From positions 11,196 to 75,195 of the forward strand of contig CALKCX010000008.1 of NCBI GenBank assembly GCA_938083015.1: DNA of 64,000 nt, in the 5' to 3' direction. This document shows, piece by piece, positions 3,539-55,788 of the stretch (the first letter of the stretch is position 1; every line of letters starts with the position of its first letter). Under the pieces are notes generated by a model. That model was not told the DNA's origin. It was given only the letters and a program-made list of their open reading frames with translations, and did not search any database. A program made the position numbers and the translations under genes. Source of the stretch: an uncultured Candidatus Micrarchaeota archaeon. Lineage in GTDB: Archaea; Micrarchaeota; Micrarchaeia; Anstonellales; J096.

Positions 3539-4205
3539 ATTTTTCTAATTTTTTTATCAATTCCAATATTTTATTCAAATCCAATTCATCAGGTCTAAGG
3601 TTAGAATATTCATTAGGAACATTATCTAATATGTTTTTTATTTTCTTATTCTTATGAGAAAACAGTAATGTTACCCATTTATCAAATATCTTATCTCTAT
3701 CTCTTAGTTTCTCTATCTTAACAATTGTAGAGTCTACCTTTGGTATAGGACTAAAACAGTATTTACTTACTATCTTCAAAGGTCTAATATTAAAATAATA
3801 TTTACTAGATACAGATAGTCTACCATATCTTGGATTATCCGGAGTCATTAACATCTTATCTACGAATTCTTTTTGAAACATCAATATAGCTGATTTAAAT
3901 TTCCAATCTAAAAGTTTAAACAATATCGAAGATGAAATGTAATAAGGAATGTTACCTACAATGTAATCTACATCGAAAGGTTCTAATTCTAGAAAATCAC
4001 CTATAATTGTATTTTTTGTAATCTGTTTAAGTTTTGATTCAAATCTAGAATCAATCTCTACTGCCCAAACCTCTCCTTTTTCTATTAATAATTTTGTTAA
4101 TCTTCCATCTCCTGCCCCTATTTCAAGAATTTTACCATTAACTTGTTCTGCTATAAAAGATAATACTTTATTGTCTTTTAAGAATACTTGTCCTAATCTG
4201 TTCAT
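3537..4205 (-). CDS. rsmA: 16S rRNA (adenine-N6,N6)-dimethyltransferase RsmA/KsgA/Dim1
   Basis: LGQVFLKD, SAM motif ILEIGAGDGRLT, and VGNIPYYISS. Confidence 0.9.
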   Translation of the reverse strand: MNRLGQVFLKDNKVLSFIAEQVNGKILEIGAGDGRLTKLLIEKGEVWAVEIDSRFESKLKQITKNTIIGDFLELEPFDVDYIVGNIPYYISSSILFKLLDWKFKSAILMFQKEFVDKMLMTPDNPRYGRLSVSSKYYFNIRPLKIVSKYCFSPIPKVDSTIVKIEKLRDRDKIFDKWVTLLFSHKNKKIKNILDNVPNEYSNLRPDELDLNKILELIKKLEK

Positions 4206-5190
4206 AACTATATCTTAATGGATCTAATAAAAGATAATCGACCTTATGTAATTTATCTAATTGATCTACTCCTGTAAGAAACATTGCACCTTTAAGTTGA
4301 GATATTACTATATCGATTAGTCGATAGTCTTCTTTAATAACAGCTTCTAGAAATGGTCTGGCCATACCAAACATCTCTGCCCCAAGTACCAGGCATTTAT
4401 ATCCGTCTATACCATCACGAATCCCCCCGCTTGCTAAGAGCTTTACCTCTTTTTTATTCATCAATAATGCCAATGCCGTAGGTATCCCCCAATCTTGAAA
4501 TCCTGGAACAGCATTAGGGTTTCTCATATATTCTATTCTAGTCCAACTAGTTCCACCTGCACCAGCAACATCATAATACAATACTTTTGAATGTTTTAAG
4601 TTATCTATTACTCTATAACTTAGACCTGCTCCAACTTCTTTGACAATTACATTTAAGTTATCTGCTAATTCAATGATTTTATCTCTTACCCCTTCCCAAT
4701 TTAGATCACCTCCTTGGATTAGCTCTTGAGCAGGATTTAGATGAATTGCTATAGCATCTGCTTCTATACTATTAACAGCATCGATTATTTGAGATATACT
4801 GTATTCTTTAAGTTGCACACCTCCTATGTTAGCTATTAAAAATATATCTCTTGCCTTTTTAACATCATACGTATACTTAAGTGAAGGATTTTTTAACATT
4901 GCCCGTATACTTCCTAATCCTAATGGTATATTATATTTGTAAGCTAGATCTGCTAATTTAGAATTTATTCTCTCAGCTTCTTGGTATCCTCCTGTCATTC
5001 CCGAGATGTATATAGGGTAGTTAAAAACTCTATTAAACAGTTTTGTTTTCGTATCTATCTTATAATAATCTATCTCTGGTAAAGGGTTGTTTATTAGCAT
5101 TACGTATTCTAACCAATTAGATATTTTATATTGAGATTCTTGCTTAAGAGAATTTATCACATGTTCATATTTTCTTCTTTCTATATCCAT
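4168..5190 (-). CDS. fni: Isopentenyl-diphosphate delta-isomerase, type 2 (FMN-dependent)
   Basis: ISGMTGG, KEVGAGLS, DVAGAGGTSWTRIE and ASGGIRDGID. The 3' end overlaps the rsmA start by 38 nt. Confidence 0.9.
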   Translation of the reverse strand: MDIERRKYEHVINSLKQESQYKISNWLEYVMLINNPLPEIDYYKIDTKTKLFNRVFNYPIYISGMTGGYQEAERINSKLADLAYKYNIPLGLGSIRAMLKNPSLKYTYDVKKARDIFLIANIGGVQLKEYSISQIIDAVNSIEADAIAIHLNPAQELIQGGDLNWEGVRDKIIELADNLNVIVKEVGAGLSYRVIDNLKHSKVLYYDVAGAGGTSWTRIEYMRNPNAVPGFQDWGIPTALALLMNKKEVKLLASGGIRDGIDGYKCLVLGAEMFGMARPFLEAVIKEDYRLIDIVISQLKGAMFLTGVDQLDKLHKVDYLLLDPLRYSYEQIRTSILKRQ

Positions 5191-17472: not shown

Positions 17473-17753
17473 TTTAAATCAAATACTTTGTAATAACCTT
17501 TATTTGTATGTAATATAACTGCTGTTGGACAACTATCTAATCGAATATTAGTAGTATTGTAAACTTGATTGTCTGGAAAAACAGTTAAAGAATATATTAC
17601 AATTTCCTCATTATAATATATCTGTAAAGTACCGTTATTGAATAGTATCTTTATGCTCTGCCCAGTATTGTTAAAAAGTCTCTCTGATCCAAAGATACTT
17701 AAAAGTATTGCAAATAACATTAACCAAAAAGATAAAATGTATTCTATTTTCAT
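17466..17753 (-). CDS. Small membrane/secreted protein (95 aa)
   Basis: N-terminal hydrophobic helix, several NxT sequons, and ATGA-type overlaps on both sides. Confidence 0.5.
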   Translation of the reverse strand: MKIEYILSFWLMLFAILLSIFGSERLFNNTGQSIKILFNNGTLQIYYNEEIVIYSLTVFPDNQVYNTTNIRLDSCPTAVILHTNKGYYKVFDLKC

Positions 17754-19207
17754 CTCACTTCACCGTTATCCGCATCATTATAACCGTATTCTGACATTAC
17801 AGCTTTCCACCAATTACCATTTACTTTCTTTAATTGTTCCTCAGCAGGCAAAGCTATATGTTCAGCTTCAACTACATGTCTTGCCAATACTAATTCTTCT
17901 TCATCTAATACAGCAAGGTCACCAGCAGCTCTTACTACTCCGCCGAGATATCTAAATCTTAATGTTAGACCATTGACCTTATCGTATCTCTTTGCTATTT
18001 TCTTAGACACATTTATAAGTTCATACAAGGCAGATATATGAAAATGGGGAATTTTAGCATCATTCTCTATTTCTTGTGCTACAAATTGATACGTTTTATA
18101 TATATTTTCTTCTGTTATAGGCATCCACGTATTTAATACTACTTCATATCCATATCCATTAATTCTACTTCTTAAAGCAGGATGTAAATTAGGCAAGTCT
18201 AATATGTTAATAGCACCTATAAGTATAAAATCACAAGGTACATTTTCTACTTTTACAACTGCCCCTGTTCCAGTAGTATTCTTAGCTACTATAGAATATT
18301 TTTTATCTTGCATTGCTGTTAACAACGCTCTTTGTATATTAGGTTCTAATGTAGATAATTCATCTATAAATAATACGCCTTCATGTGCCTCATGTACAGC
18401 ACCAGCTACTACTCTACTAAAATGAGGAGTCCCTAATTCTGGATGTGTTCCATATGGATCGTGTTCAACATCACCAAACAATTCAGATTCTGTCTTTGCT
18501 ATTACTTGGACAAACATCGATCTATCAAAAGGTACCAATACCTTTCTATCATTATTAGAATCTATTTTTCTTAGTATGTCTTCTGGTATAATATCTTTGA
18601 ATTCATATTTATAAACTTTCTCTCCATCTATAAAATATAACGTATTAATTGCCTCTCCTTCATTGTTGATATTTGGTCTAATTACGTAATTTTTCTTTTT
18701 AGGTGATTCGTAGAATGGATAAGAACTTCCTCTTTTCTTGCTACTACATTTCGGACACATATCTAAATTAGGTGCACTGTAATGTCCACAGTTTTTACAT
18801 CTTACATTTAGTTTCTCAGCTACATCTATAGGTAAAGCTATATAAGGTGGGGGTATTTCAGTAGGTTTTGTTATCGTATTATTATTTTCATTTTTTCTCT
18901 CTATTTTTAATATAGGTCTCTCTGGTCTAGAGGGGTTGTGTAGTATGACAATTTGCTCTTTTGGAGAAGGAAGAGTTGAAGATATGGCCTTTGCTATCAT
19001 GCTTTTTCCTACTCCTGGAGGCCCTACCAATAATAGATGTCTTCTCTGTTTAGCAGCTACCTTTGCCATTCTTATAGCATGATCTTGTCCAATTATTCTT
19101 TCAAATTCATCTTTCGGTACTGGTATATCTTTAGTCGAAAATATACTGTCAATGGTTTTTCTAAACATAAATGTATAATTGTTTATACTTTTTTTAAATC
19201 TTATCAT
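17750..19207 (-). CDS. LonB-like AAA+ ATPase lacking the protease domain
   Basis: IIGQDHAIRMAKVAAKQRRHLLLVGPPGVGKSM, GVLFIDELSTL, ALLTAMQDKKYSI, HPALRSRINGYGYEV and LRFRYLGGVVRAAGDLA all parallel archaeal LonB. The protein ends about 30 aa after the ATPase lid. Confidence 0.8.
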   Translation of the reverse strand: MIRFKKSINNYTFMFRKTIDSIFSTKDIPVPKDEFERIIGQDHAIRMAKVAAKQRRHLLLVGPPGVGKSMIAKAISSTLPSPKEQIVILHNPSRPERPILKIERKNENNNTITKPTEIPPPYIALPIDVAEKLNVRCKNCGHYSAPNLDMCPKCSSKKRGSSYPFYESPKKKNYVIRPNINNEGEAINTLYFIDGEKVYKYEFKDIIPEDILRKIDSNNDRKVLVPFDRSMFVQVIAKTESELFGDVEHDPYGTHPELGTPHFSRVVAGAVHEAHEGVLFIDELSTLEPNIQRALLTAMQDKKYSIVAKNTTGTGAVVKVENVPCDFILIGAINILDLPNLHPALRSRINGYGYEVVLNTWMPITEENIYKTYQFVAQEIENDAKIPHFHISALYELINVSKKIAKRYDKVNGLTLRFRYLGGVVRAAGDLAVLDEEELVLARHVVEAEHIALPAEEQLKKVNGNWWKAVMSEYGYNDADNGEVR

Positions 19208-37314: not shown

Positions 37315-37694
37315 TGAACCTGTATAGAGACGATATTATAGCTATATATAAAAATCCACTTAAAATGGGCAAACTTCAAGATTATGATCTTGTATTAGAA
37401 GGAGAAAATGGAAGCTGTGGTGATAAAATTAAGATATATATCAAGTTAGACGGGGATAGAATTGATAAAATATCTTTTGAAGGACAAGGGTGTGTTATTA
37501 GCATAGTCTCAACCGATTTATTATTACAATATATTGAAGGTAAGAGTATTATGCAAATTCAAGATATTGAAGAAGAAGATATGTACGTATTAGTTGGTAT
37601 AGATCTATCTGAAAATCCATCTAGGAAGAAGTGTATGATGCTATCCTTAGAGACTTTACGAAAGTTGACAATTCCAAATTCCGATTCTGTTTGA
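37311..37694 (+). CDS. sufU: SufU/IscU-type Fe-S scaffold protein
   Basis: Three-Cys pattern: GSCGDKI, GQGCVIS and RKKCMML. Confidence 0.8.
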   Translation: MMNLYRDDIIAIYKNPLKMGKLQDYDLVLEGENGSCGDKIKIYIKLDGDRIDKISFEGQGCVISIVSTDLLLQYIEGKSIMQIQDIEEEDMYVLVGIDLSENPSRKKCMMLSLETLRKLTIPNSDSV

Positions 37695-38165
37695 TCTAGC
37701 TTTTTGTTCTAATTCTAAACATTGTCCTGTATAGGAATCTCTTGAAGATCTATAATAACAGAATGCAAGTCCTTGCTCTACCATAATCAATCCTAAGACT
37801 TGAGTTTCTGTCATAAATATAGCTAATGTTCTATTGTATTTATCTTTTTTACCATTGGTCTTTACGTATTTTATATTTTTTTCAACAAAATCCATAGCTA
37901 ATCTAGCATAGGTTTCCATACAGCTTTTATTTAAATCGAATTCTTTTACCCATCTATCTTTTTGATTTTTACCTATCTCAGGTGCATCGATAATCATATC
38001 TCTGTAAACAACACCATTTATTTCAACAGTATCTCCGTCTATAATTCTATAATTGTTATTTAAATATACCTTTTCATATACTTCTGTTGATATGAATAAA
38101 ATTGCTATTAATACTATCGTCAATATAAAAACCAGTAATAGAATTAGACCAAGCTCATTTCCCAA
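37656..38165 (-). CDS. Membrane-anchored staphylococcal-nuclease (SNase/thermonuclease) homologue
   Basis: N-terminal TM LILLLVFILTIVLIAILFI, then IIDGDTVEING...YRDMIIDAPEIG...KYNRTLAIF...GLAFCYYR. Confidence 0.75.
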   Translation of the reverse strand: MGNELGLILLLVFILTIVLIAILFISTEVYEKVYLNNNYRIIDGDTVEINGVVYRDMIIDAPEIGKNQKDRWVKEFDLNKSCMETYARLAMDFVEKNIKYVKTNGKKDKYNRTLAIFMTETQVLGLIMVEQGLAFCYYRSSRDSYTGQCLELEQKARSNRIGIWNCQLS

Positions 38166-45483: not shown

Positions 45484-46533
45484 ATGAAAATAGGTATTCT
45501 GTCAGATACTCATATAGGATTAACTAGAGATAGCTTTAAAGATGAGATAAAGAGAAATTATAAAAAAGCTATAGAAATTCTAAAGGACTGCGATTTAATT
45601 ATACACGCTGGAGATATTTTCGATAGGAATGTCGTAGATGTTAATATGTTAACTACTTTTTTAGAACCTATTAGAGCTTATAATCTAAAATTATTCTATA
45701 TTTTAGGTAATCACGATATTATGAGAAGTAATCTTGAACCTGCTCTTGATAAATATTCTAAATTAAAAGGAGAACAAAATCAGTTTTTATCTAAACTTGA
45801 TAACGAGAGATTAAGACAGTATAGTAATGATATTGTAAATATCGTTGGTATAGATTATGATGATAGACTAATAAAAGAGAAATTAGAATTAGCTAAAACT
45901 AGATTAGATAAATCAAAATATAATATATTGGTTATACATCAAGATTTAGCTGATTTTTTACAAACTGAATTTGCAATAAGTTCTAATTATTTATTAAATC
46001 TAGGTTTTCAATTGGTAATAAATGGTCACATTCATAAATATTCTATTAAAAGAAATTTGTTAATTCCAGGGTCTACTTCTATTACAACATTTGATAAAGA
46101 GGATTTAACAAGTATAAAATATGTACATATTCTTGATACTAATAGACAAGAGATTCAATCTATACCAATACCTGATCAAACTTCAGGTTATTATTTTGAA
46201 ATGGATGAAGTTGGTAAAACTCAAGAGCAAATACAAGAAGACATATCTAAATTGATAGATCAATATAAGAATAAATTTATTAAAATAGTATTGAAAACGG
46301 ATAGGCCTGTGTCATTGGGAAGTATTGTTGATAATCCCTATATAAGTTTGGAAAGATCTATAATAACTAAAGATGCTGAAAGCTTAGATTTTAAATTAAT
46401 AGACATAGATGTTGAATTGAAGAAGGATTGGAAATACGATTATAGTTATGAAGAATTTATAAAAATACTGGATGAAGATCTAGAAGATACGCAACAAAGA
46501 ATAGAGTTGTTGATAAATTTAAAAAAGATGTAG
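45484..46533 (+). CDS. Mre11/SbcD-family metallophosphoesterase
   Basis: Motifs LSDTHIG, AGDIFD, GNHD, VIHQDL and NGHIHK. Confidence 0.65.
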   Translation: MKIGILSDTHIGLTRDSFKDEIKRNYKKAIEILKDCDLIIHAGDIFDRNVVDVNMLTTFLEPIRAYNLKLFYILGNHDIMRSNLEPALDKYSKLKGEQNQFLSKLDNERLRQYSNDIVNIVGIDYDDRLIKEKLELAKTRLDKSKYNILVIHQDLADFLQTEFAISSNYLLNLGFQLVINGHIHKYSIKRNLLIPGSTSITTFDKEDLTSIKYVHILDTNRQEIQSIPIPDQTSGYYFEMDEVGKTQEQIQEDISKLIDQYKNKFIKIVLKTDRPVSLGSIVDNPYISLERSIITKDAESLDFKLIDIDVELKKDWKYDYSYEEFIKILDEDLEDTQQRIELLINLKKM

Positions 46534-46544
46534 TTAGATAAATT

Positions 46545-47663
46545 ATGGAAGTTGTTGTACTTGCTGGTGGATTTTCAAAGAGAATGAGACCATTTGAATT
46601 AAAGCCCGTATTAACAATAGCTGGAAAAACAATAATAGATAGAGCTTTAGAAAGTTGGAAAGGCCATAATATATACGTGGTTTATAGAGATGAAAGAATT
46701 AAAGATTATGTTAAAACAGAAGGGGTAACTTTTGTAGAACAACTTGAAGATATGCCAGGTACTGCAGGAGCTATTTATTCTGTCAAACAATATATCAAAG
46801 GTAATAGTTTTTTCGTAATTTCATCTGATCATGTTCTTGATCCTAAAATATATGAAAAGATGCAGAAATCTAAGCCTAATACTGTGTGTATAAAAAGAGT
46901 AAATAATCCTGAAAAATACGGTGTTGTTGTACTTGAAAAAAATAAAATATCTGAAATTGTGGAAAAACCTTCTAATCCAAAGACGAATTTAGTAAACATA
47001 GGTATATATCATTTCAATAGAAGTATATTTAATGAAATCTCTAAAATAGATATTTCTCCAAGAGGTGAATATGAGATTACAGATACTCTTATAGGTAAAA
47101 ACGCCCTAATAATAGAAGATGAGGTATGGATGGATCTTGCATATCCTTGGGAATTACTTGAAGCTGCAAGGTATATCATAAGCGAATTAGAACCTGAGAG
47201 AAATGAAGGTGAATTAATAGGTCAAAATACCATATTGGGCAAGGTCATAATAGAGAAAAGTGCTCGTATAATTAATTCTACTATAGAAGGACCTGTATAC
47301 ATAGGTAAAAACGTTTCCATAGGTCCGTATTCATATATAAAAGGACCAGCTAGTTTAGAAGATAGTGTAGACATAGGTATAGGGACAACTGTAAAAAATT
47401 CTATATTAATGCAGGGAACTAAGGCAAAGCATTTAAATTATATTGGTGATTCTGTTATCGGTAAACATGTAAACTTTGGAGCTGGATCTGTAATAGCTAA
47501 TCTAAGATTTGATGAAGCTCCTATACAACCTATGAATACTAGAAAATTTGGTGCTGTTATTGGAGATAATGTAAAATTAGGAGTAAATAGTATGATAATG
47601 CCTGGTAGTATTATACAAAACAACACCATAATATATCCAGGACAATTATATAAGAATACTTAG
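46545..47663 (+). CDS. Bifunctional-type sugar-1-phosphate nucleotidylyltransferase with left-handed beta-helix (GlmU-like)
   Basis: VLAGGFSKRMRP N-terminal domain plus C-terminal hexapeptide repeats (IGKNVSIGPYSYI..., IGDSVIGKHVNFGAGS...). Confidence 0.75.
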   Translation: MEVVVLAGGFSKRMRPFELKPVLTIAGKTIIDRALESWKGHNIYVVYRDERIKDYVKTEGVTFVEQLEDMPGTAGAIYSVKQYIKGNSFFVISSDHVLDPKIYEKMQKSKPNTVCIKRVNNPEKYGVVVLEKNKISEIVEKPSNPKTNLVNIGIYHFNRSIFNEISKIDISPRGEYEITDTLIGKNALIIEDEVWMDLAYPWELLEAARYIISELEPERNEGELIGQNTILGKVIIEKSARIINSTIEGPVYIGKNVSIGPYSYIKGPASLEDSVDIGIGTTVKNSILMQGTKAKHLNYIGDSVIGKHVNFGAGSVIANLRFDEAPIQPMNTRKFGAVIGDNVKLGVNSMIMPGSIIQNNTIIYPGQLYKNT

Positions 47664-50044
47664 AATAGTTTAATCTTTTCCAAATATTCGTCTAATGTTA
47701 TTAACTGTACTTTATCATTTCTAACATATTGTATTATCATCATTCCAAGATTATTACTATAAAGCTGACTTTGAAGATCTTTTAGATCGAAATAATCTTT
47801 GGTTATAACTATTACTTCTCCATATTGATTAAGGGCATCGAGAATACTTTTAAATATACTATTGACTTTAGAGCTATCATATAGATATACTATACCTTCT
47901 CCATATTCGCTTATATATTTGACTGCACTTTCCTTTTGTAAATCTAATTCATACAGTATTCCATATTCTAGACCTGTATCTCTTAATATTCTATACATTA
48001 CCAATTGTTCTACATTTAATCCACTTTTTGATTCCCAATCTGCAAGTATATAATAATCTCGATACTTTTTCAATACCCCTCTAAGAACATAGGTATTTAA
48101 TGTTACTGATAAAGAATTATAATCGATTACTCCTGTTTCAAGATTAATATCAATACTGCTAAGACCTTCAGATATCTCTTTTTCTGTAAGAGGTACGTAT
48201 TTCCATTTATAATAACTTTCTACATATTCAAATAGTTTTCTCAATTTATCTTCATCCAATCTATACTCTTGAGTATCTATAGGTGGGAAAACATCTGGAA
48301 TATCTATACTGTATGTTATCGGTGGTCTTGGTTTAAGAAAATTAGATCCAAATACGATTAATACTGATATTACAATAGTAGCTAGACCGAGAGGATTTCC
48401 TAATATTAGTCTATCTATAGATGTTCTAGGTAATACTCTAAATGTTGCCTGATATTCAATATTCTTAATATTAAATGTTATAGTATAATTGCCTACTGGT
48501 AAAGGTTGATCCAAATTTATAGTTATGCCAGAACTATCGACAAATCTTTCTTCTCTAATTTTTTCTTCCCAAGGTAATTTAAATTTAACATTATCTACGT
48601 AAACAGGACTACCGTCAAAAGAATAGAAGTATATTTTAAGAAATCTACCTTGTCTATTATCAAAATACTGAGCTTTTGGATATACACTAGAAGCTACTAC
48701 TATACTTCTAGATAATAATACGCCTGTTGTTTCCCTTAATTCTATCATATAAGTACCTTCTTCAAGATTAAGAGATCTTCTGTATTCTGTAGATATCTTT
48801 GGTTCAATATTACCAACGGCAAACGAAGCTAATTTTGAATTTGAAACATTATACAAAATCAATTCTAGATTTCTACGTTCAGTTCTAAGACCGTAAGGTT
48901 CATATCTAACATCAAATGCTTGTTCAGTCTTTGGTAAAAAGAACCTATCTTTTGCCAATACTGCACCTCTACTAAATGGATATATATTGGAAACTAGTAA
49001 AAATGGTTTATAAGGATCAATTGATCGAATGTAAACATTAGGTCTAATCTTATCTAAGTTTATTACTAAAAATCTATGTCCTGGATTAATAGAAGTAGTT
49101 GATCTTGGTCCTGATATTCCATTTATCCATGCCCCATTTTCTAAATGTAGCTTCAATATTTCATATGCTTTTTCTACACTTTCAAGTATTTCATCATTTA
49201 AATCTACAGGATAAAACAAATATAATTTCGATCTTCCTTCATCATAGAAATAGCTTAGAAAATCAAATACTGCTGAATCTGGTATCATATAGTTTACTCT
49301 AAAAGATGAACTACCTAATATATAAGCTATTATTGGGTTTTTTTCACTTTTTTTATTCTGAATTAATGGAAAAACAAATAGATTATGAGAAATGGGCGAA
49401 GATAATGGATCTGGTTTGTAAAAAGCTGGTAATCTAGAAGATATGAATATGAAGTTAAGTTTCTTATTAGAATTTTGAATAACATCGTATACTTTTTTAT
49501 CAAGTACCTGTCCAAAATGTAATACAAAAGCACCATTAGGTAAGCTATCTATTTGTTCTGGTTCTATAATTCTAAATTTGTAATCCATATACTGCGTTAA
49601 TTCATACATTGCATTTTCATATTGTTCACCTCCAGATTTGAGAAGATAAAATTCTTTGATAATAGGATGATCCGAAGCTACAATTTGTACATCATAGCTA
49701 ATGTTTTTATCATTATCAATATTAAAAACAGGTAATAAAGCAGAGCTACCTAAGGTACCGAAATGTGCATAGAAAGCTTCTAATATCTCAGGAGGATCGT
49801 AAATTACAGGTTCAACGTTGATTATATTTTGCAAACTTAACAATTGTAAAAACCCATAAAACAATAAACCTAAGAAAAACAATACTGAAACTATACTAAT
49901 TATAAATCCTGTATTGTCTTTATCTTTGATTTTTGTAAAATATCTCTTTTCAAATTCTTCTTTACTAACTTTACCTGTATATTGTTTAATTACCTGTATT
50001 TTAAACAACTTGGCCACAAAATTTTTAACTATTTGAAACCTCAC
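47660..50044 (-). CDS. Large bitopic membrane protein (794 aa), unknown function
   Basis: GTG start overlaps the upstream TAG (TAGTG). There are TM helices near residues 46-68 and 555-575, with about 480 aa between them and a C-terminal tail of about 220 aa. Confidence 0.6.
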   Translation of the reverse strand: MRFQIVKNFVAKLFKIQVIKQYTGKVSKEEFEKRYFTKIKDKDNTGFIISIVSVLFFLGLLFYGFLQLLSLQNIINVEPVIYDPPEILEAFYAHFGTLGSSALLPVFNIDNDKNISYDVQIVASDHPIIKEFYLLKSGGEQYENAMYELTQYMDYKFRIIEPEQIDSLPNGAFVLHFGQVLDKKVYDVIQNSNKKLNFIFISSRLPAFYKPDPLSSPISHNLFVFPLIQNKKSEKNPIIAYILGSSSFRVNYMIPDSAVFDFLSYFYDEGRSKLYLFYPVDLNDEILESVEKAYEILKLHLENGAWINGISGPRSTTSINPGHRFLVINLDKIRPNVYIRSIDPYKPFLLVSNIYPFSRGAVLAKDRFFLPKTEQAFDVRYEPYGLRTERRNLELILYNVSNSKLASFAVGNIEPKISTEYRRSLNLEEGTYMIELRETTGVLLSRSIVVASSVYPKAQYFDNRQGRFLKIYFYSFDGSPVYVDNVKFKLPWEEKIREERFVDSSGITINLDQPLPVGNYTITFNIKNIEYQATFRVLPRTSIDRLILGNPLGLATIVISVLIVFGSNFLKPRPPITYSIDIPDVFPPIDTQEYRLDEDKLRKLFEYVESYYKWKYVPLTEKEISEGLSSIDINLETGVIDYNSLSVTLNTYVLRGVLKKYRDYYILADWESKSGLNVEQLVMYRILRDTGLEYGILYELDLQKESAVKYISEYGEGIVYLYDSSKVNSIFKSILDALNQYGEVIVITKDYFDLKDLQSQLYSNNLGMMIIQYVRNDKVQLITLDEYLEKIKLF

Positions 50045-50745
50045 TAATCAATCACCTTTAAGTATTTTTCCTTTACTAAAAAGTCAAGATTATCGTTTAC
50101 TCTACTTTCAGGAAGATTGTAATACTTAGCAAATTCTATAGTATTGATATAACCATTATTCTCTTTTATCCATTCTATTAGTTTTTCTCTAATCATATCA
50201 TCACTCATAGATTCGTATTTTCTTAATTTTAACATAGCTTTCTCTAATTCTTCACTAGTTTCTATCAATTTTCTTTCTATTTCAGCTTTTTCAATCTCTA
50301 ATTTTGCCAATCTCTTTTCAAGAGTATTTATCTGAGTCCTAAGTTGTTCTACTTTCATCAATTCTTCTTTAACATTTGAAGGTACTGATTGAAAGATATC
50401 ATTGATAGCATAGTCAATTATCTTAATCATATCCGATATATCAAGATCGTAATAGCTGGCAACTTGACTTATAATAGGTATTGCCTTTTTTATAACATCC
50501 CATCTTCTAAATGCTTCTTCATATCCGACTTCAGTATAACTTATTTCTATACTATCTTGTCCAAAATGTAATATGTAATAACTTTCAGGATTACCGTTTA
50601 CATCTTTACGTTCTAAATAAGCTACTTCTATACTATCTCCTCTTTCTAAATAGTAAAATCCGGTCATAGATTTTAATATAGATTTTATCCTATCCAGACT
50701 TTTCAGTTTGGCCTTTATCGTTATTTTCTTTGCCATCAACATCAC
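50044..50745 (-). CDS. Hypothetical coiled-coil protein with C-terminal winged-helix-like region (233 aa)
   Basis: Central heptad-like stretch EQLRTQINTLEKRLAKLEIEKAEIERKLIETSEELEKAMLKL, and C-terminal INTIEFAKYYNLPESRVNDNLDFLVKEKYLKV. The start may be ATG 50736. Confidence 0.55.
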   Translation of the reverse strand: MMLMAKKITIKAKLKSLDRIKSILKSMTGFYYLERGDSIEVAYLERKDVNGNPESYYILHFGQDSIEISYTEVGYEEAFRRWDVIKKAIPIISQVASYYDLDISDMIKIIDYAINDIFQSVPSNVKEELMKVEQLRTQINTLEKRLAKLEIEKAEIERKLIETSEELEKAMLKLRKYESMSDDMIREKLIEWIKENNGYINTIEFAKYYNLPESRVNDNLDFLVKEKYLKVID

Positions 50746-51124
50746 CTATAGTTTCAGGTTCAGAGTGAATATCAGGAATATATCTTGTATATACTACAGC
50801 GAATAGTACTAATAATGTTATCAATATTAAACTTATTAAAGAATTTATAGCTTGATTAAGATTAGCTCCGTTTAATATAGACAATATTCCTGTAAACCAG
50901 ATTAAAGCTACTAATACAGATGCCCACATTAGAGATTTCTCAAACTCTTTTCTTCTTTTTTTATAGTCTTCTAGGTTTTGTTTTGATACATACAATTCAT
51001 TACCTTGATATGTTTTCAACATCTTCTTTATATTGGCGAGAGTGTTTATAATAAAATCTTTTTTTATACGATAAGCTTGACTTCCAGGTGCTAGAGGTTC
51101 TTTCGATATAATATCTATTTTCAT
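50690..51124 (-). CDS. Small membrane protein: polar ~65-aa N-region plus two hydrophobic helices (144 aa)
   Basis: ATGA overlap with the ATPase gene stop. The helices are MWASVLVALIWFTGILSIL and INSLISLILITLLVLFAVVY. Confidence 0.55.
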   Translation of the reverse strand: MKIDIISKEPLAPGSQAYRIKKDFIINTLANIKKMLKTYQGNELYVSKQNLEDYKKRRKEFEKSLMWASVLVALIWFTGILSILNGANLNQAINSLISLILITLLVLFAVVYTRYIPDIHSEPETIGDVDGKENNDKGQTEKSG

Positions 51125-52686
51125 GGTTTCACCTCTATAATTCTCTCTCCACCTTTAATTTTTATTTGAGCTCTTTGAATGGCCTTTGCTATAGTTTGAT
51201 CTTCAACTCCTAATTCTTTTAAGAATTCTATAATATCTTTTCTCTCCACTCCTTCTAATAACATCAATCTTACGAATTCTATTATATCTAATCTATTGTT
51301 ATTCTTCTCAAACATATTGCTCATGTTTTCAATTACCTTCATATCCATTCCCATCATCTTAAGTTTAGATCTAAATTGTTCTCTAGTCATTGATACACTT
51401 CCCATAGTATCACCTTCAATAACATTTAACATGATAAAGTAATCTTTTACTATCTCTTCTCCTTCTATCTTTTTTATTAAAACAGTATTTGAAAAGTTTC
51501 CAGATATGTAATAAGAGAGATACATTGCAGCTTGTCCTACTCCAAAAGATTGTATTTTTTCTCTAATAAAATCACTAAATCTAAGACTTCCTTGAAGATA
51601 ATTTAAATAATTTTCAAATTTTACCTTTAATATCAACACAGTACCGCTGTTACTAAAAATGGCCTCTGCTATATCTGTTGGGTTTTGACTAGCTATTATC
51701 ATACTAAATCCATACTTTCTTCCTTCTCTGACAATCATGACAACATCACTGTTTTCCTCTTTACTAATCTTCCAAGCTTCATCTATAACCACAAATAATC
51801 TAACACCTTTAACTTTTCTAAAGTCTTCTGTTCTCATCTTTTCTTTTATGAATTGTAATACAGTTAAAGCACCTAAAGCACGCATTGTCTCATTAGGTAA
51901 AGTAGATAAATCTAAATCTACTAAACCTGAAGTTATAAGTTCATCTAATGATACTGTACTTTTATTAGCAAAGTAATCATCACCAGGTCTTGTAAATTGT
52001 TTTAACTTATGTACAAGAGTTTGTATTTCTCTTTTTATATATGGATTAGATTCTAATTCTATCTTTTCTTCTAAAAGCTTTACCACGTCTTTTAATGTAG
52101 GCGGTTCTAAAGGTCTACCAAGGGGATCAAATTGTTCATTCGAATCTAATTTAAATCCGGCATTAGAATAAGCTGTTTCTAAGGCCCATTCTAATAATCT
52201 CTTTTGTTCTTCTTCTGCCGATATCCCTATTAGAAGATTTAAAGTCTCAACGATTTGCTGTATTCTAGCATATGGTTTCATTCCACCTAAATCCATGATA
52301 TTAAGATAATTCCCCCCACCTAAAGATAATACCTTACCATTAGTCTGCATTACCCAATCTTTATATTCTCCTGCCCAATCTATTATTATTGCATTTGCAT
52401 TCCAAACATAACTGGCCCGAAGTAGGAAAGTTTTAATTGTAAAAGATTTACCAGATCCACTAATACCTACTATGACTATATGAGGATTAGTTAAATACTT
52501 AGGATTCCAATATACAGGAGTATTTAAAAATTCCGTTACACCTAAATATATTCCATCTGTTGGATTACTAAACAATAATTCAGGAGGAGGTTGAGGTAGG
52601 TATTGTAAAGGCACTCTAGCTGCTATTTCAGAATTATTTATTTCATTGAACTTTAAATTTCCCCCCAATACGCCCATGTTATACAC
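51121..52686 (-). CDS. VirB4/TraC-like ATPase (FtsK-HerA superfamily)
   Basis: Walker A IVGISGSGKSFT, Walker B RLFVVIDEAWK, and IIASQNPTD. Confidence 0.7.
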   Translation of the reverse strand: MYNMGVLGGNLKFNEINNSEIAARVPLQYLPQPPPELLFSNPTDGIYLGVTEFLNTPVYWNPKYLTNPHIVIVGISGSGKSFTIKTFLLRASYVWNANAIIIDWAGEYKDWVMQTNGKVLSLGGGNYLNIMDLGGMKPYARIQQIVETLNLLIGISAEEEQKRLLEWALETAYSNAGFKLDSNEQFDPLGRPLEPPTLKDVVKLLEEKIELESNPYIKREIQTLVHKLKQFTRPGDDYFANKSTVSLDELITSGLVDLDLSTLPNETMRALGALTVLQFIKEKMRTEDFRKVKGVRLFVVIDEAWKISKEENSDVVMIVREGRKYGFSMIIASQNPTDIAEAIFSNSGTVLILKVKFENYLNYLQGSLRFSDFIREKIQSFGVGQAAMYLSYYISGNFSNTVLIKKIEGEEIVKDYFIMLNVIEGDTMGSVSMTREQFRSKLKMMGMDMKVIENMSNMFEKNNNRLDIIEFVRLMLLEGVERKDIIEFLKELGVEDQTIAKAIQRAQIKIKGGERIIEVKP

Positions 52687-53509
52687 CTTGTTGTTTTGGA
52701 CTAACTTTGCCTATCTCTTTATACATTTCATCAGTATTTGTAGGTATAATATATTCCATTTCAAGTACTTTTAACAAATCTGGGCCTTTTATTTCATAAG
52801 CTTCTGCTCTTAAAGCTGTTTGCATCTGAGTTTTCAATTCATCCATATCTGCTTTACTTTTTTCTATAACTTCGTCTTTACTATTACCTTTAACAGTAAC
52901 CTGACAATATATTATTATGTCCATAGGTCTTAATCCCTGTTCTAATCTTTGTATCTGTTGATTCCAATATGCCTTTTCTCTCTCTAGTCTTTCTATAGTT
53001 AACAAATCCGGAGATGGAGATTCTCTAGCTTTTTGCAGTCTTAAAGATATTTCACTTCTCTTAGTTTCTAATTCTTTCTTCTTTGCACTGATATCTATAG
53101 AATACATCAAGTATGATATTTTGAAAGGTTTTTTATAATTTATCACAGCTTGTTCAAATTGTTTCTTCAAAGTCATTACTCCGTCAGGGTTATCAGAAAA
53201 AGCTTCGTATAATTTTAGACCAAAAAATCTACTTGCATAGTATTCGTCACCTACTTGTTTGATTACAACATCCATACTTGGAGGGATTTCATGTTTAGTG
53301 TGATTCATTACAATTACTACATTTTTAAGTTTAGCTAAGAATGGAAATGTTTGATCACCGTAAAGAAGCATCATAGCTACTATTATTGTAGACAATGCCG
53401 TTATTACTAATATTATTGGATTATTAAATGTAAATGCTAATAACAATGATACTACTGCTATTCCTATAACAATGTATTTTTGAGTATTAGTATCACCGGG
53501 TAACATCAA
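52679..53509 (-). CDS. Membrane protein with two N-terminal TM helices plus a soluble/coiled-coil domain (276 aa)
   Basis: TM helices YIVIGIAVVSLLLAFTF and PIILVITALSTIIVAMMLLYG. It overlaps the ATPase start by 8 nt. Confidence 0.55.
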   Translation of the reverse strand: MMLPGDTNTQKYIVIGIAVVSLLLAFTFNNPIILVITALSTIIVAMMLLYGDQTFPFLAKLKNVVIVMNHTKHEIPPSMDVVIKQVGDEYYASRFFGLKLYEAFSDNPDGVMTLKKQFEQAVINYKKPFKISYLMYSIDISAKKKELETKRSEISLRLQKARESPSPDLLTIERLEREKAYWNQQIQRLEQGLRPMDIIIYCQVTVKGNSKDEVIEKSKADMDELKTQMQTALRAEAYEIKGPDLLKVLEMEYIIPTNTDEMYKEIGKVSPKQQGV

Positions 53510-53552
53510 ATTTCACCTAATATTATAAAAAAGATAACTATTTAAAAAACAT

Positions 53553-55265
53553 ATGTTGTTCATTGATCTATGTAAGATATTGGAAAGAATAGCAGAAGAT
53601 AGGGGAAGACTTAGAATAATAAGCATATTATCAGAATTATTTTCTAATATATCTCCTAATGAAGCAAAAATAGTAAGTTATCTTATAATTGGTCAAATAG
53701 CTCCACCTTATGTAAAATTAGAATTAGGGGTATCGTCGAATACTATTTTAAATGCCTTATCTCAAGTCTCTGGTATAGATAAGACTAAATTAGAAAATAT
53801 GTTAAGACGAGTTGGAGATATCGGAGATCTTACTTATAAAGTTCTTGAAAATAGAAAATTAAGATTATTAGATGAAAACAGATATCTAAGTTTAGATTAC
53901 GTATTTAATATTTTACATAAAATAGCTAGAGATAGTTCAATAAAAGTTAAAACAGATTTATTAGTATCTTTATTTGGTAGAATTTCTAGTTTAGAAGGTA
54001 AGTATTTAGCTAGATTAATTGTAAATAAAACTAGAGTTGCCATAGGTGTTGCAACAGTATTAGATAGTTTAGCTACTGCTAAAAATCTTGATAAAGAACG
54101 TGTAAGAAAAATATACTATATGACATCTGATATAGGTGAAACGACTTATAGAATACTGTCTAATAACCTTGATATTGATATCAATCTTTATCGTCCTATA
54201 CAGCCTGCATTAGCTGAAAGAGTAAAAGATAGTCAAGAGATGTTAGAAAAGTCTCCAGAATTGTTTGTAGAATATAAATACGATGGATTTAGAATACAAT
54301 TGCACAAAGGAGATGATGTAAAAATATTCTCAAGGAAATTAGAAGATATAACTGATCTTCTACCAGAAATTGTCGAAGATTCAAAAAAATATCCAGGTAA
54401 ATTTATAGTTGAAGGTGAGGCCGTTTCTATATTAGATGGAAAACCATTGCCATTTCAAGAGATTATAAAGAGAAAGAGAAAGTATAACATTGATGAGTAC
54501 ATTGATATAATACCAATTCATGTTTATTTATTCGATATATTATATTTAGATGGGCAAAAATTGATAGATCTTCCTTTTCGAGATAGAAGGGCAATATTAG
54601 AAAATTTTGTAAATAATAATTTTAGTAGACTTAAACTTAGTTACGGTAAATACACATCGAGTAAACAAGAGATAGACGATATATTTCAAAGATCAATAGC
54701 TGAACATATGGAAGGAATTATTGGTAAAAAACCAGATGCCCCGTATACTCCTGGTCAGAGAAATCATAATTGGATGAAGTTAAAACATGGTAAAGATACT
54801 ATAGACGCTGTAATAGTAGGCTATTTTTATGGTCAAGGTAGATTAAAAGGTTATCCTGGCTCTTTATTGATATGTGTATATGATGAAGATAATGATGAAT
54901 ATCAAACTATAGCAAAGGTATCTTCTGGATTATCAGAAGAAGAATTAATAGAGCTAAGTAATAAATTAATAGCTACTAATAGACCAGGTATAGGAATTGT
55001 ATCAAACATTGAACCGGATGTATGGGTGGAACCAGATGTTGTAGTAGAAGTAACCTATGATGAAATTACCTTATCGCCAGTACATACATGTGCAAAAGAC
55101 GTATTTAAAAATAGAGGTCTTGCATTAAGATTTCCAAGAATAATTAGAATAAGAGACGATAAGTCTATATATGAGGTAACAAGAGTTTCAGAAATGATAT
55201 CTTTGTATAAATCACAAGGACCAAGGCGACAAGTAGAATTGGAAGAAAAGGAAGAGTCTTTTTAA
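53553..55265 (+). CDS. lig: ATP-dependent DNA ligase
   Basis: Adenylation motif EYKYDGFRIQLH, EGEAV, NWMKLK and LRFPRIIRIRDDK. Confidence 0.93.
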   Translation: MLFIDLCKILERIAEDRGRLRIISILSELFSNISPNEAKIVSYLIIGQIAPPYVKLELGVSSNTILNALSQVSGIDKTKLENMLRRVGDIGDLTYKVLENRKLRLLDENRYLSLDYVFNILHKIARDSSIKVKTDLLVSLFGRISSLEGKYLARLIVNKTRVAIGVATVLDSLATAKNLDKERVRKIYYMTSDIGETTYRILSNNLDIDINLYRPIQPALAERVKDSQEMLEKSPELFVEYKYDGFRIQLHKGDDVKIFSRKLEDITDLLPEIVEDSKKYPGKFIVEGEAVSILDGKPLPFQEIIKRKRKYNIDEYIDIIPIHVYLFDILYLDGQKLIDLPFRDRRAILENFVNNNFSRLKLSYGKYTSSKQEIDDIFQRSIAEHMEGIIGKKPDAPYTPGQRNHNWMKLKHGKDTIDAVIVGYFYGQGRLKGYPGSLLICVYDEDNDEYQTIAKVSSGLSEEELIELSNKLIATNRPGIGIVSNIEPDVWVEPDVVVEVTYDEITLSPVHTCAKDVFKNRGLALRFPRIIRIRDDKSIYEVTRVSEMISLYKSQGPRRQVELEEKEESF

Positions 55266-55788
55266 TAATTACTTGTTTACCAAGATTATTATAAACGTAT
55301 TCTTTATCTATAAGCTTTCCGTCTATGGTAACCTCTCCTATTAGATTATAATCTACTTTTTTAATTTCATATAATTTATCTTTGAATAGAATTATGCCTA
55401 GGTAAGACAATAGAATTGAAAAAAATGGATTTAAAAACATTACAATCAACACAAAAATTGTATAGGAAATACTATAACTAACTGAAATGGCCAATATAGA
55501 AGATATTATAAGAACATCGATAAAATATATGTTAAGATGAATTGCCAATACAGGTAATATTAAGACCTCTGCATCTCCGAATACATTTAATTTATATAGT
55601 AAATAAGCTAATAGAGTATAAATTACAATATATACTAATGAATCTGTTATAAAGGCCTGGTATATACCTATGCCATACATAAACCATACTAAAAAATCAG
55701 GTACATTCTTATTGTTTTTTATATCGTAATATGACAATATGGCCAATATAGATAAGTATATTATACTAAATATATCAAAATTGGACAT
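55165..55788 (-). CDS. Probable A24-family prepilin/preflagellin peptidase
   Basis: Polytopic. The candidate catalytic Asp residues lie in YYDIKNNKNVPD and NVFGDAEVL, about 50 aa apart. Confidence 0.5.
   Translation of the reverse strand: MSNFDIFSIIYLSILAILSYYDIKNNKNVPDFLVWFMYGIGIYQAFITDSLVYIVIYTLLAYLLYKLNVFGDAEVLILPVLAIHLNIYFIDVLIISSILAISVSYSISYTIFVLIVMFLNPFFSILLSYLGIILFKDKLYEIKKVDYNLIGEVTIDGKLIDKEYVYNNLGKQVIIKKTLPFLPILLVALVLVIYTKISFLKLLLPHI

Follow-up and report, generated by a model that had tools for sequence, protein, structure and literature searches.

What is built by an archaeon that carries, in a single operon, a conjugation-type ATPase together with four further proteins, three of them spanning the membrane? 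The question is raised by a locus in a stretch of 64,000 nucleotides (hereafter the window, to which coordinates refer unless a related locus is named) from an uncultured archaeon of the Micrarchaeota, a phylum of tiny symbionts among the DPANN archaea (GenBank assembly GCA_938083015.1, contig CALKCX010000008.1, positions 11,196 to 75,195 of the forward strand). Five genes on the minus strand between positions 47660 and 53509, here designated A to E, probably build an envelope machine derived from a secretion system. The reading put forward here, which is judged on balance to be the probable one, is that they form a phylum-wide, vertically inherited core operon of the Micrarchaeota encoding a cell-envelope machine derived from a type IV secretion system (T4SS). 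No published description of the operon was found in the literature searched on Micrarchaeota together with VirB4, HerA, CedB or DUF87.

Organization of the operon

The list of open reading frames (ORFs) of the window contains exactly five ORFs in the minus-strand block, in the order A-B-C-D-E. An earlier note, made from the sequence of this DNA alone, had described five ORFs of 276, 521, 144, 233 and 794 aa, on one strand and with coupled junctions, and all of them were located as described. Gene A occupies positions 52679..53509 (276 aa, with the ATG at 53506 as its likely start), gene B 51121..52686 (521 aa), gene C 50690..51124 (144 aa), gene D 50044..50745 (233 aa, with a likely start at the ATG at 50736) and gene E 47660..50044 (794 aa). 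As read in the sequence, A and B overlap by 8 nt if B begins at the GTG at 52686. A second candidate start, the ATG at 52677, lies one base past the TAA of A and 8 nt after an AAGGTG motif. The latter is more likely to be the start of B, because it has AAGGTG ahead of it, the homologues of B align from approximately residue 4, and the public annotation of this 79.7-kb contig gives B a length of 518 aa; B is therefore probably a protein of 518 aa.

The B/C junction reads ATGA and the D/E junction TAGTG. C and D overlap by 56 nt when the GTG start of D is used, or by 47 nt when D starts at the ATG at 50736. A GGTG-type motif resembling a Shine-Dalgarno sequence was observed ahead of each of the five starts. 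The ATPase gene, B, is translationally coupled to the genes of three membrane proteins with few transmembrane helices (A, C and E) and of one soluble protein (D). Upstream of the operon, non-coding DNA is limited to the 43 bp (53510..53552) that separate gene A from the divergent gene for DNA ligase; this region contains an AT-rich, TATA-like run and an AGGTGA motif preceding the start of A. This region is presumed to contain the promoter of the operon.

The ATPase encoded by gene B

The motifs by which the ATPase had originally been recognized, IVGISGSGKSFT, LFVVIDEAWK and IIASQNPTD, are all situated within B. Walker A (GISGSGKS) is found at residues 74-81 and Walker B (VVIDEAW) at residues 299-305 and these, with the residues neighbouring them, are invariant in 63 homologues. 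When B was compared with Pfam, DUF87 was the top match (8e-16), followed by P-loop_TraG, AAA_10 and TrwB_AAD_bind. The best NCBIfam matches were to the VirB4-like model CD1110 (92 bits), to Mbov_0397, the VirB4 of a Mycoplasma integrative and conjugative element (ICE; 87.5 bits), and to CedB (87 bits), and each of these alignments to B is a single contiguous stretch covering residues ~43-380. Lower scores were obtained for CedD (72 bits), TraC (60 bits) and HerA (at most 56 bits). All of the NCBIfam scores are far under the equivalog cut-offs, which for HerA are at least 800 bits.

The best sequence match of B in the PDB was the VirB4 C-domain, 4AG5 (5e-11). An AlphaFold (AF2) model of B was calculated from a 63-sequence alignment, with a predicted local distance difference test (pLDDT) score of 84, and was compared with known structures using Foldseek. 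Target-normalised template-modelling scores (TM-scores) of 0.79-0.80, with a root-mean-square deviation of 3.4 Å, were obtained against 4AG5 and 4AG6, both of which represent the C-terminal domain of VirB4, and a score of 0.76 against DndH-C, as compared with at most 0.57 for HerA structures. B also matched 1207 plasmid records, of which 1027 (85%) are conjugative, with TraC prominent among the matches. On the evidence of these comparisons and of its predicted structure, B is an ATPase of the VirB4 C-terminal-domain type, nearer to VirB4, TraC and CedB than to HerA proper, and its earlier placement with VirB4/TraC can be retained. The defence models in PADLOC (HerA, mad8 and DndH) matched B at 75-64 bits, so that the preference for VirB4 at the sequence level is real but modest.

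Other identities were considered and rejected. Assignment to HerA in the strict sense is contradicted by the TM-scores given above; in addition, no HAS-barrel was found at the N-terminus of the model and no NurA gene is adjacent. An FtsK/SpoIIIE translocase is likewise not supported, since the Pfam FtsK_SpoIIIE model scored 20.3 bits against a cut-off of 24 and covered the P-loop alone, a hydropathy scan found no transmembrane segment in B, and the C-terminal domain of B has only weak helix-hairpin-helix (HhH)-like matches. PHROGs yielded at most generic terminase-like P-loop matches for B, and neither PADLOC nor PHROGs returned anything for the partner proteins; a viral reading of the operon was rejected accordingly.

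The P-loop domain of B begins near residue 45, following a conserved PPEPP peptide. A VirB4 N-domain was not found on B, in that neither CagE_TrbE_VirB nor TraC_F_IV matched and the model is devoid of such a domain. At the other end of the protein there is an extra domain (residues ~386-511), composed of beta strands and two helical hairpin modules of the form L-R-x-x-G-L-s-e-x-x-I. This domain weakly resembles the (HhH)2 region of Topo V (E=0.004), and also a segment of Csa3 that is possibly the winged helix-turn-helix domain of that protein; these matches are no more than a hint that it binds nucleic acid.

An ATPase ORF of exceptional length, 1205 aa, was observed in one related metagenome contig (L085:7359-10976). 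An insertion of ~680 aa follows its Walker A motif (GITGSGKS), ends in ...VHNS and looks like an intein within the P-loop.

Conservation of the operon in the Micrarchaeota

More than 1000 homologues of B were identified, at 52-95% identity, and the named ones derive nearly all from Micrarchaeota (Anstonellales, Bilamarchaeaceae and Micrarchaeia). A scan of GTDB at one genome per species revealed relatives in 198 genomes, from which 80 loci were fetched and examined. Gene order was determined with hidden Markov models built from the window proteins A-E. All five genes were found in the order A, B, C, D, E, on one strand, in 65 of the 65 loci long enough to be assessed, the other 18 loci ending at a contig edge. 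Conservation of gene order had been named in the earlier note as a check on the proposed operon, and the five genes proved inseparable across the sampled Micrarchaeota. Pairwise identity of the ATPases between loci is at least 50% (median 69%), and the contigs that bear the operon reach 1.03 Mb in length. Three of the loci (L024, L025 and L074) are titled 'Candidatus ainarchaeum sp.', and the taxonomic labels look inconsistent; they are not taken as evidence of a spread beyond the Micrarchaeota, the ATPases in question being 88-95% identical to Micrarchaeota-labelled ones.

The surroundings of the operon vary by clade but remain housekeeping in nature. Of 70 loci, 45 have purB (adenylosuccinate lyase) upstream; on the downstream side, ~30 of 65 have a TFIIE-alpha-like gene and a gene for a glycosyltransferase. 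In the window, GatD, a metallophosphoesterase and an NTP-transferase are encoded on one side, and DNA ligase, an amino-acid kinase and a polyprenyl synthetase on the other; further housekeeping neighbours are Ndk, S28e and L7Ae. Analysis of the neighbours agrees with the original description of the flanks as housekeeping, which had named DNA ligase and a GlmU-like gene.

These observations bear on one of the alternatives, namely that the locus is a conjugative or other mobile element that has integrated, or else an island of anti-phage defence based on HerA. The matches of the ATPase to the PADLOC models HerA, mad8 and DndH, at the scores given above, and to TraC of conjugative plasmids speak for this alternative. 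Set against them is the gene order, which is identical in all the genomes sampled from the phylum, within housekeeping surroundings that are stable. The G+C content of the window is uniform, with no shift at the operon; no tRNA gene was found within 6 kb of it, the nearest ones being more distant; and the repeats flanking it do not go beyond chance-level, AT-rich matches, none being of the attachment-site (att) type. No integrase, relaxase or VirD4 was found in the operon or its flanks, and no effector (Sir2, DUF4297 or nuclease) in or adjoining it. A mobile or defensive origin is considered extremely improbable. The universal syntenic occurrence of the genes, in the absence of att sites, tRNA and a G+C shift, argues instead for a vertically inherited core operon that is neither an integrated element nor a defence island, and the initial view of the locus as chromosomal rather than an ICE is upheld.

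The membrane proteins A and C

Protein A had been described as a two-helix transmembrane hairpin with a soluble domain of about 200 aa, and the hydropathy scan is in accord with this: a hairpin at residues ~12-50, with the N-terminus inside, is followed by 224 soluble, cytoplasmic residues that include a long helical/coiled-coil stretch. The gene is present in 80 related loci, each time directly ahead of B, and mean column identity is 54% in an alignment of 75 sequences. None of the 75 members has a family-level match in Pfam, and no NCBIfam or PDB profile match was obtained. The position of A, its orientation and its N-terminal transmembrane hairpin are those that a VirB3-like protein would be expected to have; the VirB3/PrgI models were matched by 0 of the 75 members. 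In one locus (L014:4313-7545), ~830 nt separate A from the ATPase gene, unlike the tight coupling seen elsewhere, which may reflect an insertion or an assembly problem.

Protein C has transmembrane helices at residues ~65-85 and 95-115 (hydropathy scan), preceded by a cytoplasmic N-domain of ~60 aa. An alignment of 33 members of the family reveals the order N-domain, conserved KRKxFE motif, transmembrane hairpin, YxPAxE motif and variable tail. The N-domain of most relatives forms a treble clef or zinc ribbon (CxxC...C), and their tail is rich in Lys and Arg; DUF2116 ('probable treble clef') was matched by eight of the 33 members and DUF2207_C by 17. The cysteines of the ribbon are replaced (D-I-I-S ... 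V-S) in the window lineage and its closest relatives. As the N-domain is a zinc ribbon and the C-terminal tail is basic, both ends of C are expected to be cytoplasmic. The small, two-helix membrane protein of the earlier description is therefore confirmed as regards its hairpin, but it is not pilin-like: both of its ends lie in the cytoplasm, and no pilin or VirB3 family was matched in a scan of all 33 members.

Pilin genes upstream of the operon in one clade

Clustering of the ORFs flanking related loci brought to light a set of genes that is not present in the window. In five of the GTDB loci (L028, L034, L039, L044 and L051), three tandem small genes lie directly upstream of A and on the same strand. 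Each of the products carries a signal peptide and a pair of hydrophobic helices with a basic loop (QFFGAExRAK) between them; two cysteines are conserved. The Pfam family T4SS_pilin was matched by 12 of 13 of these proteins (best E value 8e-7), and TrbC/VirB2 by 11 of 13; the one pilin that was checked individually scored 27.2 bits, as compared with a gathering score of 26.6 for T4SS_pilin. The paralogues, two or three in tandem on the operon strand (in L028, at positions 3820-5047), also occur in metagenome loci L085-L100, and all belong to one clade of the Micrarchaeia. A scan of metagenomes with the pilins identified 18 contigs. On each of the 10 that reach far enough downstream, the pilin genes lead into the complete string A-B-C-D-E; on one distant contig (L099), pilins are present and the operon does not lie downstream. 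The resulting order, of pilin, two-transmembrane protein and ATPase, is collinear with virB2-virB3-virB4. The T4SS reading of the operon gains new evidence from these putative pilins.

Protein D and a possible role in chromosome translocation

An alignment of 50 members indicates that D is a soluble, cytoplasmic protein, with an alpha/beta-like N-domain of ~110 aa, a coiled coil at residues ~120-185 and a C-terminal winged helix at residues ~190-233. It had been described as a coiled-coil protein with a region resembling a winged helix-turn-helix, and both elements were recovered. The winged helix matched that of the Sulfolobus ESCRT-III protein CdvB (PDB 2XVC) with an E value of 7e-5, and EAP30/Vps36 was matched by 25 of the 50 members, with a best E value of 1.1e-6. 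Neither Snf7 nor Vps4 was matched anywhere in the operon.

The similarity of D to CdvB and to EAP30 of ESCRT-II raises the possibility that the operon encodes an FtsK/HerA-type housekeeping translocase acting on the cell's own chromosome, in segregation or clearance at division. A, C and E would then be a membrane anchor, and D a coiled-coil adaptor related to the winged-helix proteins of the Cdv/ESCRT systems. Phylum-wide presence and high conservation of the ATPase are housekeeping-like, and candidate DNA-binding modules are available in C and in the C-terminal domain of B. The ATPase, on the other hand, is nearer to VirB4 than to FtsK, for which the Pfam score is below the cut-off; D lacks a Snf7 core; the operon is linked to pilin genes in one clade; and the large, fast-evolving ectodomain of E, described below, would be unexpected in an internal segregation machine. 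Cultivated Micrarchaeota, moreover, encode FtsZ, MinD and SepF for division (PMC8784108). Such a translocase is therefore regarded as quite improbable.

Protein E and the possibility of a host-contact portal

E is the largest of the operon proteins and, as had been predicted, it is bitopic. The hydropathy scan places its transmembrane helices at residues 44-71 and 548-570, with ~470 residues between them, close to the ~480 originally estimated. A basic cytoplasmic tail and the first helix are followed by an ectodomain, consisting of an alpha/beta domain (residues 86-310) and about three beta-sandwich domains of the Ig/FN3/MG-like kind (residues 314-537). Beyond the second helix, which the domain layout places at residues 551-570, the conserved linker DIPDFPP leads to a winged helix in the cytoplasm (residues 598-667), and this is followed by an alpha/beta domain (residues 678-793). 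An AF2 model from an 88-sequence alignment has a pLDDT of 86. When the whole model was compared with the PDB and with BFVD, a collection of viral structures, the top 50 Foldseek matches were generic Ig/FN3/MG arrays alone, with no VirB8-like protein among them. A PDB profile search gave insignificant matches to FliL and SGBP-B alone, and profile-profile comparison among A, D, E and the ATPase revealed no internal homology.

The E family is a closed one. A word-indexed protein search with the E of the window yielded four close relatives, and the family was recovered when 1.84 billion representatives were searched exhaustively with HMMER, among which it comprises 199 clusters. Full-length members are of ~780-920 aa, and the shorter matches resemble fragments. 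A word-indexed search with a concatenated profile of A and the C-terminus of E returned six E proteins and no A. Conservation within E is highest in the linker and winged helix (0.62-0.64) and lowest in the ectodomain (0.43-0.50).

The ectodomain of E, which is large, Ig-like and exposed at the surface, evolves faster than the cytoplasmic part of the protein. This is supportive of another alternative, in which the operon specifies a host-contact portal, or a docking and gating complex, and not a DNA pump. Multimers of E would bridge the envelope as a scaffold, accepting host nanotubes or exporting and importing proteins or metabolites, and the ATPase would power assembly or gating. Cryo-electron tomography (cryo-ET) of ARM-1, a cultivated member of the Micrarchaeota, has revealed a 21-nm barrel-like docking platform in the envelope where host nanotubes enter, the components of which were not identified (10.1101/2024.05.20.594898). 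Giant surface proteins of nanohaloarchaea bear VirB4/TraG-like ATPase domains (PMC10266531), and the T4SS of Patescibacteria is required for epibiotic growth (PMC12102498). Against this stand the modules of the cytoplasmic side (winged helices, zinc ribbon and basic tail), which are more typical of the handling of nucleic acids. The operon also seems to be kept in Micrarchaeota that are predicted to be less host-dependent. A portal of this sort is a serious alternative, though an unlikely one. A variant that unites it with the secretion-system origin is a T4SS-derived 'receiver', in which E, A and C would make up a ring over a hexameric VirB4-like motor. This ring would be the 21-nm barrel of ARM-1, and it would operate with no VirB6-type channel. 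By way of the ring, host nanotubes or VirB2-like pili would carry DNA, or macromolecules of another kind, into the symbiont. Both the identification with the barrel and the inward delivery through it are regarded as doubtful, rather more so than the simple portal.

A probable T4SS-derived envelope machine

If, as favoured here, the operon encodes a T4SS-derived envelope machine, a division of labour can be proposed. A would anchor the ring of the ATPase to the membrane, as VirB3 does, and may provide, in trans, the N-domain that is missing from B, a proposal with which the order of the genes and the topology of A are in accord. Multimers of A, C and E around a hexameric ATPase would replace the VirB6-type channel. 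The Ig-like ectodomain of E would span the pseudoperiplasm and the S-layer and touch a partner cell or a pilus; on the cytoplasmic side, D and the winged-helix domain of E would dock on the motor, B. The activity proposed in the first instance resembles the import carried out by Ced/Ted: where cells are in contact, DNA would be moved across the envelope at the expense of ATP, whether or not a VirB2-like pilus takes part. In the second instance, a macromolecule other than DNA would be the one moved.

DNA is the favoured substrate, although a weakly supported one. It is preferred because candidate nucleic-acid modules are concentrated on the cytoplasmic face: D and E contribute winged helices, B the HhH-like hairpins of its C-terminus, and C a zinc ribbon with a Lys/Arg-rich tail. 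It is preferred also because ARM-1 is without nucleotide biosynthesis (PMC8784108) and the window encodes a membrane-anchored SNase. The latter, a 169-aa protein (37656-38165, minus strand), has an N-terminal hydrophobic anchor and a staphylococcal-nuclease domain, matched by Pfam SNase at 5.5e-17. This nuclease is probably exposed at the cell surface and is of interest for the scavenging of DNA.

Several of the results weigh against this reading. The suggestion that the partners might be VirB3, VirB6/CedA, VirB8 and VirB2 found no support, as none of them matched these components in Pfam or NCBIfam, even in family-wide scans. A polytopic protein resembling VirB6, CedA or TedA is absent from the operon: A, C and E have two transmembrane helices each, no operon protein has more than two, and a channel of that type is therefore lacking. 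No TrbL/VirB6 or CedA matches were obtained, and no conserved polytopic gene was found in the flanks across 83 loci. The HerA and DndH models score just modestly below the VirB4 models for B, the fold matches of E are generic, and pilin genes adjoin the operon in one clade alone, with none within the 64-kb window. The idea of a DNA substrate rests on weak domain similarities, such as the Topo V match noted above, and winged helices bind proteins as well as nucleic acids.

Of the features by which a T4SS is recognized, the ATPase is present outright and the pilin in one clade alone. As the ATPase is the only one present without qualification, the operon is best described as a variant of the T4SS kind, not as a member of Ced, Ted or any mating-pair-formation (MPF) class.

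Other genes of the window

A gene for an Mre11-like metallophosphoesterase (45484-46533, plus strand) lies ~1.1 kb from the operon, on the opposite strand, with one gene between. It is absent from the conserved neighbour families of the related loci and therefore provides no evidence for a HerA-Mre11 link. Two genes away from the operon, at 55165-55788 on the minus strand, is a gene for a polytopic membrane protein of 207 aa. Its motifs YYDIKNNKNVPDF and FGDAEVLILP resemble those of A24 prepilin peptidases, and it has no Pfam match at E<=0.01. A more distant gene (17750-19207, minus strand) encodes a Mg-chelatase/MCM-like AAA+ protein of 485 aa, in which Walker A lies at residues ~58-79 and the remainder of the domain is matched from approximately residue 240, which suggests an inserted segment of ~150 aa.

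Significance

The operon is among the best-conserved lineage-specific gene sets of an entire phylum; it is centred on a conjugation-type motor, and its other four components, A, C, D and E, belong to families without known relatives. It is a candidate for the means by which DPANN archaea acquire material from a host, and for what builds the structures seen at contact sites. For cultivated Micrarchaeota (ARM-1, A_DKE and Mia14), it names specific proteins that can be sought by cryo-ET and proteomics. If the favoured reading is true, the idea of a "domesticated T4SS", as exemplified by Ced/Ted, extends to the DPANN archaea, and a T4SS-type machine can operate without a VirB6 channel.

Comparison with known systems

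The resemblance to CdvB and ESCRT-II is confined to D, the C-terminal ~45 residues of which align with the CdvB winged helix and half of the family of which matches EAP30/Vps36. D has neither the Snf7/ESCRT-III core nor the tandem winged-helix architecture of ESCRT-II, and it is encoded in the context of a VirB4 operon, with no cdv genes. With HerA, in its HerA-NurA, Sir2-HerA and DUF4297-HerA associations, B shares membership of the FtsK-HerA P-loop superfamily and a top match to DUF87, but B has no HAS-barrel, its TM-scores to HerA structures are low (<=0.57), and its partners are membrane proteins instead of NurA or an effector. The likeness to VirB4/TraC/TrbE is closer: the ATPase fold (4AG5) and the DEAW context of Walker B are shared, as is, in one clade, the virB2-virB3-virB4 gene order. 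B differs in corresponding to the C-terminal domain alone, with ~45 residues ahead of it as compared with 250-450 in VirB4, in its additional C-terminal beta-plus-helical domain, and in having no VirD4, VirB11 or relaxase partner.

The systems that appear closest in logic, and comparable on that basis, are Ced/Ted and the T4SS of Patescibacteria (CPR). Ced (CedA/A1/A2/B and CedD/E) and Ted (TedA/B/C) are chromosomal, relaxase-free T4SS derivatives of Thermoproteota (PMC9905601), likewise built on a VirB4-like ATPase, and CedB is among the three best NCBIfam matches of B. Small two-transmembrane partner proteins occur in both, and VirB2-like pilins, which are part of Ced/Ted, are linked to the Micrarchaeota operon in one clade. 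Structure comparison has shown that the VirB4 N-domain is divided between CedB and CedD in Sulfolobales, each holding a part that the other does not (10.1101/2024.09.27.615246), and a comparable splitting of that function may apply to A and B. In contrast to Ced/Ted, the Micrarchaeota operon has no CedA/TedA channel protein (VirB6-like, with six to seven transmembrane helices), its ATPase has no part of the N-domain, and A, C, D and E have no Ced/Ted counterparts; the Ced genes, furthermore, are partly dispersed, whereas those of the Micrarchaeota form one strictly conserved operon.

The T4SS of Patescibacteria, which is MPF-FATA-like, differs in that it keeps recognisable homologues of VirB3/PrgI, VirB6 and TrsD, and in that its VirB4 is full-length. 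None of these is seen in the Micrarchaeota operon at the profile level; its partners have winged-helix, zinc-ribbon and Ig-ectodomain modules instead. To our knowledge, no archaeal counterpart of the patescibacterial system has been described. There are also parallels. The patescibacterial system, too, is chromosomal, phylum-wide and for the most part relaxase-free (PMC12102498). It is centred on VirB4 in an ultrasmall, host-dependent lineage, with VirB2-like pilins (PF18895/PF04956) nearby, and the best NCBIfam matches of B, CD1110 and Mbov_0397, are VirB4 families of the monoderm type.

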